A DNA stretch of 555 bases, taken from sequence record EF517104.1; one strand, written 5' to 3'. Made by a program: the position numbers and the translations under genes. Positions 1 to 555 of the stretch are shown piece by piece. The stretch is from a phage. Under the pieces are notes generated by a model, which saw only the letters and a list, made by a program, of their open reading frames with translations, made no database searches and was not told the origin of the DNA. Each line of letters starts with the position of its first letter. Within the stretch, counting starts at the first letter, position 1.

Positions 1-111
1 TAGAGTGCATAAAGTATGCATAATGGTGTACCTAGAGTGATCTCTAAGAATGGTGATTATATTGTATTAGTATCACCTTAACTTAAGGACCAACATAAAG
101 GGAGGAGACTC
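1..111 (+). other. Non-coding leader upstream of gene 19.5; presumably transcribed from a promoter upstream of the window
   Basis: Seen: the only ATG-initiated ORF is 21 codons (16-81) with no Shine-Dalgarno. No match to the T7 RNA polymerase promoter consensus (TAATACGACTCACTATAGGGAGA) and no convincing -35/-10 pair. Established knowledge (recalled): in T7 the phiOR promoter lies a few tens of bp upstream of this window start and transcribes through gene 19.5. Confidence 0.5.
100..107 (+). promoter_or_regulatory. Shine-Dalgarno / ribosome-binding site for the 112-261 ORF
   Basis: Seen: AAAGGGAGGAGACTCATG; GGAGG at 101-105, 6 nt before the ATG at 112-114 (AGGAG at 103-107 gives a 4 nt spacer). 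A canonical strong SD at near-optimal spacing. Confidence 0.75.
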
Positions 112-261
112 ATGTTCCGCTTATTGTTGAACCTATTGCGGCATAGAGTCACTTACCGATTTCTTGTGGTACTTTGTGCTGCCCTTGGGTACGCATCTCT
201 TACTGGAGACCTCAGTTCACTGGAGTTTGTCGTTTGCTCTATACTCACTTGTAGCGATTAG
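112..261 (+). CDS. 19.5: Small hydrophobic protein of unknown function, 49 aa (T7 gene 19.5-like)
   Basis: Seen: ATG at 112, 49 sense codons, TAG at 259-261, strong SD immediately upstream. Hand translation: MFRLLLNLLRHRVTYRFLVVLCAALGYASLTGDLSSLEFVVCSILTCSD. Basic N-terminus (R3, R10, H11, R12, R16) followed by a hydrophobic stretch (FLVVLCAALGYASL) suggests a membrane-associated or single-pass peptide. All three reverse-strand frames have stops inside 112-261, so there is no competing antisense ORF. Established knowledge (recalled): T7 gene 19.5 is a 49-codon terminal gene at about 39389-39538, which fits this window if position 501 is the start of the right terminal repetition. Confidence 0.8.
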   Translation: MFRLLLNLLRHRVTYRFLVVLCAALGYASLTGDLSSLEFVVCSILTCSD

Positions 262-354
262 GGTTTTCCTGACCGACTGATGGCTCACCGAGGGATTCAG
301 CGGTATGATTGCATCACACCACTTCATCCCTATAGAGTCAAGTTCTAAGATATA

Positions 355-500
355 CCCATAAAGAGCCTCTAATGGTCTATCCTAAGGTCTATACCTAAAG
401 ATAGGCCATCCTATCAGTGTCACCTAAAGAGGGTCTTAGAGAGAGCCTATGGAGTTCCTATAGGGTCCTTTAAAATATACCATAAAAATCTGAGTGACTA
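355..500. repeat. Short-repeat region flanking the terminal repetition (CCTAAAG-family heptamers; SRR-like)
   Basis: Seen: exact CCTAAAG at 394-400 and 423-429 (plus 517-523 and 541-547 inside the terminal repetition). One-mismatch variants CCTAAGG 381-387, CATAAAG 357-363, CATAAAA 481-487. Local tandem TCTATCCTAAGG (376-387) / TCTATACCTAAAG (388-400). Four exact copies of one heptamer in 555 bp is well above chance (about 0.03 expected per specific 7-mer). Established knowledge (recalled): arrays of this heptamer flank the T7 terminal repetition on its inner sides. Confidence 0.6.
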
Positions 501-555
501 TCTCACAGTGTACGGACCTAAAGTTCCCCCATAGGGGGTACCTAAAGCCCAGCCA
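501..555. repeat. Terminal repetition, first 55 bp (right-end copy of a direct terminal repeat; truncated by the window)
   Basis: Seen: 501-555 = TCTCACAGTGTACGGACCTAAAGTTCCCCCATAGGGGGTACCTAAAGCCCAGCCA. Established knowledge (recalled): this is identical to the first 55 nt of the T7 genome, whose terminal repetition is 160 bp. Its position immediately downstream of a 19.5-like ORF fits the right genome end. The window stops inside the repeat. Confidence 0.75.
526..538. other. Inverted repeat / potential hairpin CCCCC-ATA-GGGGG inside the terminal repetition, flanked by CCTAAAG direct repeats
   Basis: Seen: CCCCC (526-530), ATA loop (531-533), GGGGG (534-538). Bracketed by CCTAAAG at 517-523 and 541-547, giving CCTAAAG-TT-CCCCCATAGGGGG-TA-CCTAAAG. 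Function not determinable from sequence. Confidence 0.5.

Follow-up and report, generated by a model that had tools for sequence, protein, structure and literature searches.

A segment just inside the right end of the phage T7 genome, in a copy that most probably stems from a stock propagated in an alkylating mutagen

Introduction

Replication of bacteriophage T7 generates head-to-tail concatemers in which each junction contains one copy of the terminal repeat. The region at the right genome end was already part of the first T7 genome to be sequenced completely, and work on its involvement in concatemer processing and packaging dates back to the 1980s-1990s. The features of this region were described for T7 decades ago and are already known. 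The packaging signal Pac consists of PacB and PacC, and the gp18/gp19 terminase acts on the concatemer (PMC9860248). Moreover, pausing of the T7 RNA polymerase at the concatemer junction helps to start maturation (PMC3276506), and a T7 origin, a pac site and the terminal repeat are required for phagemids to be packaged (PMC13236587).

Here, we report the analysis of a stretch of 555 bases of phage DNA (henceforth, the window; all positions refer to this whole stretch unless T7 coordinates are given) by comparison with T7 and its relatives. We conclude, with a probability of about 95%, that the window is a segment of the T7 genome located just inside the right end and that this copy is non-wild-type, most probably deriving from a stock propagated in an alkylating mutagen.

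Results

Placement of the window on the T7 genome

The best megablast placement of the window is at 39278-39832 of T7 (NC_001604/V01146) on the + strand with 98.6% identity, and this match extends over window positions 1-555 without a break. In a pairwise alignment, 547 of the 555 bases are identical to T7 and there are no gaps; the near-identical match to T7 that the initial annotation had anticipated was thus borne out, and the coordinates that it had given were exact. Altogether, 190 phage records contain a match to the window; the top matches are Escherichia phage T7 genomes with 98.6% identity over all 555 bases, and in most T7 records megablast returned two query locations, the second of which corresponds to the terminal-repeat copy at the left end. 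Across the region, many natural Teseptimavirus genomes share 92-97% identity with the window. No match to the window was found by megablast in plasmids and complete E. coli genomes.

The match covers positions 1501-2055 of a 2160-base T7 locus that stops at the record end, i.e. the T7 reference record extends 105 bp past the window and then ends. This is exactly where an end about 105 bp beyond the window had been predicted; the source sequence itself comprises only the 555 bases and, as placed on the reference T7, lacks the last 105 bp before the physical end. No evidence contradicts the identification of the window as T7 right-end sequence. Thus, the earlier statement that the window is tied to the right end of T7 holds, but the sequence is a mutated T7 derivative differing at eight positions, which that reading had missed. 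Similarly, the description of the window as a DNA-end and packaging region rather than ordinary coding sequence is correct as to the right-end placement, but not for the 150 of the 555 bases that are the ordinary coding sequence of gene 19.5.

Two of the matching records carry other host names. The record of 'Enterococcus phage EFA-2' (MT350293) is 92% identical over the entire window, and that of 'Aeromonas phage PZL-Ah1' (MT681669) is 78% identical over window positions 282-536. Both carry T7-type 19.5 or terminase genes, and it may be that their host labels are doubtful or that the records represent contaminant coliphages.

The leader and gene 19.5

According to the annotation of NC_001604, the +1 position of the promoter phiOR is T7 39229, 49 nt upstream of window base 1, and the whole window is therefore predicted to be transcribed rightward by the T7 RNA polymerase. 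The leader downstream of phiOR (positions 1-111, + strand), which we delimited from this annotation, the base composition and the sequence, is AT-rich (GC 0.33 in 1-100), contains small hairpins at 5-21 and 52-77, holds one substitution (C41T), and includes the Shine-Dalgarno sequence GGAGG for gene 19.5 at 101-105. The leader RNA fold was no better than those of shuffled sequences (z -1.2). Moreover, no known RNA family was found in the window (Rfam, E up to 1), and scans of the window for sigma-70 promoters and terminators returned nothing beyond chance. The AT-rich stretch at 1-100 just after phiOR resembles the promoter-plus-AT-rich layout of T7 replication origins; phiOR is named for its origin function.

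Gene 19.5, which the initial annotation had correctly recognised, occupies positions 112-261 on the + strand, corresponding to T7 39389-39538, and was identified from the list of open reading frames, the T7p60 annotation, and matches to phrog_2193 (E 2e-24) and to Pfam DUF5465 (E 3.6e-10, over the cut-off). The product is a small hydrophobic protein of 49 aa that is annotated without a function (DUF5465). The reading frame stays open in 9/9 relatives. Of the differences from T7 in this gene, those at 136 and 153 are synonymous, and that at 227 changes codon 39 (S39F); the serine concerned is part of the motif LES and is invariant in all nine relatives examined.

The palindrome and a 189-bp deletion in evolved T7 genomes

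To the right of gene 19.5, positions 291-331 form an imperfect palindrome with 19-nt arms (291-309 and 313-331) that are 79% complementary. As a DNA fold it reaches -9 kcal/mol (z -2.3), a modest value given that 5 of 200 shuffles fold equally well. The block at 290-345 is nearly invariant in Teseptimavirus, even in genomes with an unrelated left flank (Ebrios and PZL-Ah1), and the palindrome centre (311) lies 190 bp to the left of the terminal-repeat boundary (501). Chung, Nardone and Hinkle reportedly described in 1990 a 'hairpin' end on T7 concatemers at ~190 bp to the left of the repeat boundary, and we take the palindrome at 291-331, as a lead, to be a candidate site of this end. Clustered substitutions in the palindrome occur in two laboratory-evolved genomes, i.e. 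three in T7_5t2 (OL964740; equivalents of 295, 313 and 315) and one in T7_160L (MZ375263; at 314, adjoining the loop).

The window also contains a 9-bp direct repeat, ATAGAGTCA, with a left copy at 143-151 (+ strand) and a partner at 332-340, a spacing of 189 bp. Three deposited genomes of evolved T7 (MZ375285, MZ375292 and MZ375282) have the same 189-bp deletion, which corresponds to window positions 143-331 and has the two ATAGAGTCA copies as its end points; the junction in T7_270L reads GGC-ATAGAGTCA-AGTCC. This deletion takes out most of gene 19.5 together with the entire palindrome. Because three evolved genomes exist without this segment, gene 19.5 and the palindrome are dispensable, and they cannot be essential for packaging under laboratory conditions. 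Their dispensability emerged as a new point from the genome comparison and is relevant to the design of minimal T7 pac cassettes. Moreover, the change of the invariant S39 is consistent with a relaxation of selection on gene 19.5, as a dispensable gene, in a mutagenised line.

The short-repeat array and the terminal-repeat boundary

Pattern scans and the T7 alignment place the right short-repeat array (SRR), consisting of CCTAAAG-like heptamers, at about 329-500 on the + strand. The window contains five exact copies of CCTAARG, all on the + strand and within 381-547, compared to 0.28 expected, and none of 200 shuffles reached five copies; the short repeats noted earlier are therefore real. With one mismatch allowed, there are 13 matches vs 2.2 expected. 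In the array itself, exact copies start at 381, 394 and 423 and degenerate copies at 329, 357 and 457, and all SRR heptamers share one orientation. In T7, the right end contains eight copies of the CCTAARG type, and the left 340 bp contain 12. In the window, C344T and G350A abolish the leftmost T7 copy (CCTAAGG; T7 39620-39626), at window positions 343-349; G444A is also located within the array.

Positions 501-555 (+ strand) are the first 55 bp of the 160-bp direct terminal repeat. In comparisons made with the reference genomes only, they are identical to T7 1-55 as well as to the start of the right repeat copy (T7 39778-39832), confirming the proposal that an exact 55-bp start of the terminal repetition is present and recurs at the left genome end. 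This part contains two CCTAAAG copies, at 517 and 541, and a small palindrome, CCCCCATAGGGGG, at 526-538.

In sensitive blastn searches with positions 262-555, distant relatives, i.e. Teetrevirus, Apdecimavirus, Pektosvirus and many Klebsiella, Serratia and Dickeya phages, retain only ~467-534. Based on these matches, the alignment and annotated repeat starts, we define a conserved boundary block at 467-534 (+ strand), ...AAAAATCTGAGTGACTA^TCTCACAGTG..., in which the caret marks the left boundary of the repeat. The aligned distant relatives have in common ...AAAAATCTGA(G/A)TG..TA^TCTCA(C/T)AG. Neither this block nor the terminal-repeat part of the window (501-555) contains any of the mutations. 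The annotated terminal repeat starts exactly at TCTCA in phiSG-JL2, AP10, SH2, phage Y and one annotated T7, and the ends of SH2 were mapped by run-off sequencing (PMC4925675). Thus, 500^501 is supported as the site of the mature left end because the boundary is conserved and agrees with annotated and mapped ends elsewhere. The block at 467-534 is conserved between genera of the Studiervirinae and is presumed to be the recognition and cutting region that makes the mature left end. In three other records, the annotated repeat start is off the TCTCA boundary, by 25 bases in VSG32 (OR287811), six in 13a (EU734174) and one in PPWS4 (NC_047819); these offsets probably reflect how the records were annotated and not a biological difference.

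The class II pause signal ATCTGTT is absent from the window, in which the sole near match is attributable to chance. In T7, this signal is at 161-167, past the terminal repeat and, therefore, outside the window, as is the right boundary of the repeat. A concatemer or a circularised assembly would run on from the repeat into ATCTGTTACAGTCTCC... (T7 161 onward). The window ends inside the repeat and is therefore equally compatible with a true end, with a junction and with a circularised assembly. Several T7-like public records (for example, OZ035731, with the region at 2755-3309, MN481365 and PZL-Ah1) were deposited in a permuted or circular form with this region internal. That the window belongs to a concatemer junction or to a circularly permuted assembly, rather than to the physical right end of virion DNA, is in our view somewhat doubtful yet a serious possibility; no evidence speaks against it, and it concerns the source assembly and not the identity of the sequence. 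A 555-base piece that ends within the terminal repeat may indicate either the end of the genome or a break in the assembly at the repeat.

Eight derived G:C>A:T substitutions

The window differs from T7 by C>T at 41, 136, 153, 227, 265 and 344 and by G>A at 350 and 444. In all seven relatives tested, the T7 base is retained at all eight sites, and therefore all eight changes are derived in the window. Natural relatives compared to T7 have a mixed spectrum with ~29% G:C>A:T, many transversions and A:T>G:C changes; given this natural share, the probability that eight of eight changes are G:C>A:T is ~5e-5. Moreover, all eight changes are in a 5'-RG-3'/5'-CY-3' context vs a baseline of 66%, which is weak evidence on its own (p 0.037). 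Nitrosoguanidine prefers a G preceded by a purine (5'-RG-3'), as known from work on the lacI spectrum. In the Hillis and Bull experiments, T7 was evolved in nitrosoguanidine, a mutagen that favours GC-to-AT changes (PMC5850294; PMC8923235). In total, the eight derived G:C>A:T changes in RG context are most probably a nitrosoguanidine-like signature, with the mutagen deduced from the spectrum.

The T7 isolates K, K115, P and P82 (AY264775-AY264778) have G:C>A:T changes at 6/8, 6/8, 6/7 and 8/8 of their differences in the same region, respectively, and a broadly similar density, with 7-8 changes per about 800-900 bp compared to eight per 555 bp in the window. We take these four genomes to be the nitrosoguanidine experimental-phylogeny and bottleneck lines of Hillis, Bull et al. 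(Bull et al. 2003, J Mol Evol 57:241). The 'Mutant T7 clone' genomes (MZ375xxx) were also considered as mutagen lines and were rejected, as they carry a mixture of substitutions and deletions in this region instead of G:C>A:T changes.

None of the eight variants is present in any deposited genome, and the best full-length matches are to wild-type T7 with eight differences. Scans with exact 27-28-mers over the variants in viral, genome and metagenome contigs returned no match, and neither did an exact-match look-up of the gp19.5 protein with S39F.

Alternative origins of the substitutions

Three other origins of the substitutions, i.e. natural variation, damage and an enzymatic deaminase, are less likely than a mutagenised lineage. 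If the source were a natural wild isolate close to T7, the eight differences would represent ordinary natural divergence, and a divergence of 1.4% is within the range of natural Teseptimavirus. However, all eight changes are derived, unique to the window and G:C>A:T, as opposed to the mixed spectrum of the natural relatives, and outside these eight sites the window is laboratory T7 even where YpP-R, Y, C5, 13a and Yep15 differ. We therefore regard a natural isolate as quite improbable.

We attach a similarly small weight to a non-biological origin, i.e. cytosine-deamination damage or sequencing or assembly errors in a wild-type T7 contig of low coverage. Deaminated template DNA also leaves C>T and G>A changes as its signature, and a source of 555 bases suggests a short and possibly low-coverage contig; however, eight errors in 555 bases would be very high for a consensus, and gene 19.5 remains open with two synonymous changes and one missense change. 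Moreover, the finished genomes of the mutagenised T7 lineages show the same spectrum and density, although none of these points is decisive.

More doubtful still is an enzymatic origin, in which a host DNA cytosine deaminase or an engineered cytidine deaminase tethered to the T7 RNA or DNA polymerase introduced the changes. T7-based deaminase-polymerase systems exist (PMC13236587), the entire window is downstream of a T7 promoter, and six of the eight changes are C>T on the non-template (+) strand. However, the 6:2 strand split does not reach significance (p 0.29), the bases on the 5' side of the mutated C vary (A, A, C, T, T, T, A, C) and show no known deaminase motif such as TC or WRC, and the dual adenine-cytosine deaminase of PMC13236587 would also yield A:T>G:C changes, of which the window has none. 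Moreover, the same pattern arose in the K and P lineages, in which no deaminase was involved. Finally, it is very improbable that the changes record natural hypermutation, in which a host-encoded DNA cytosine deaminase acted as a defence against phages and the phage survived because its end region tolerates change.

Discussion

The probable mutagenised-stock origin of this T7 segment bears on how the record should be read: for curators, the source is a T7 laboratory derivative, probably chemically mutagenised, and not an environmental phage. As to function, the features of the window fit into the packaging pathway of T7 in the following way. T7 RNA polymerase would transcribe the window rightward from phiOR, and the replication concatemers would be joined through a single copy of the repeat. 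The gp18/gp19 terminase would then recognise PacB and PacC around the junction, and cuts would be introduced at the two repeat boundaries, one of which would be at window position 500^501, while the repeat is duplicated.

Compared to the T7/T3 packaging signal consisting of PacB and PacC (Chung & Hinkle 1990; Fujisawa & Morita 1997), the window spans the DNA to the left of the terminal repeat and extends into it, where the signals lie. As judged from the sequence, it would include the conserved left cut boundary, but not the right boundary or the pause site.

Compared to K, K115, P and P82, the window has the same T7 backbone and the same spectrum, i.e. C>T and G>A changes, the former being more frequent on the + strand, but no substitution site in common with any of the four. 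Therefore, it belongs to neither the K nor the P lineage, and most likely represents another mutagenised laboratory lineage of T7 that is like K and P but separate from them.

Finally, compared to the T7 reference (V01146/NC_001604; Dunn & Studier 1983), the window is collinear and gap-free with the same open reading frame, palindrome and repeat array; the first 55 bp of the terminal repeat are identical in the two sequences, and what distinguishes the window from the reference is the eight G:C>A:T substitutions.
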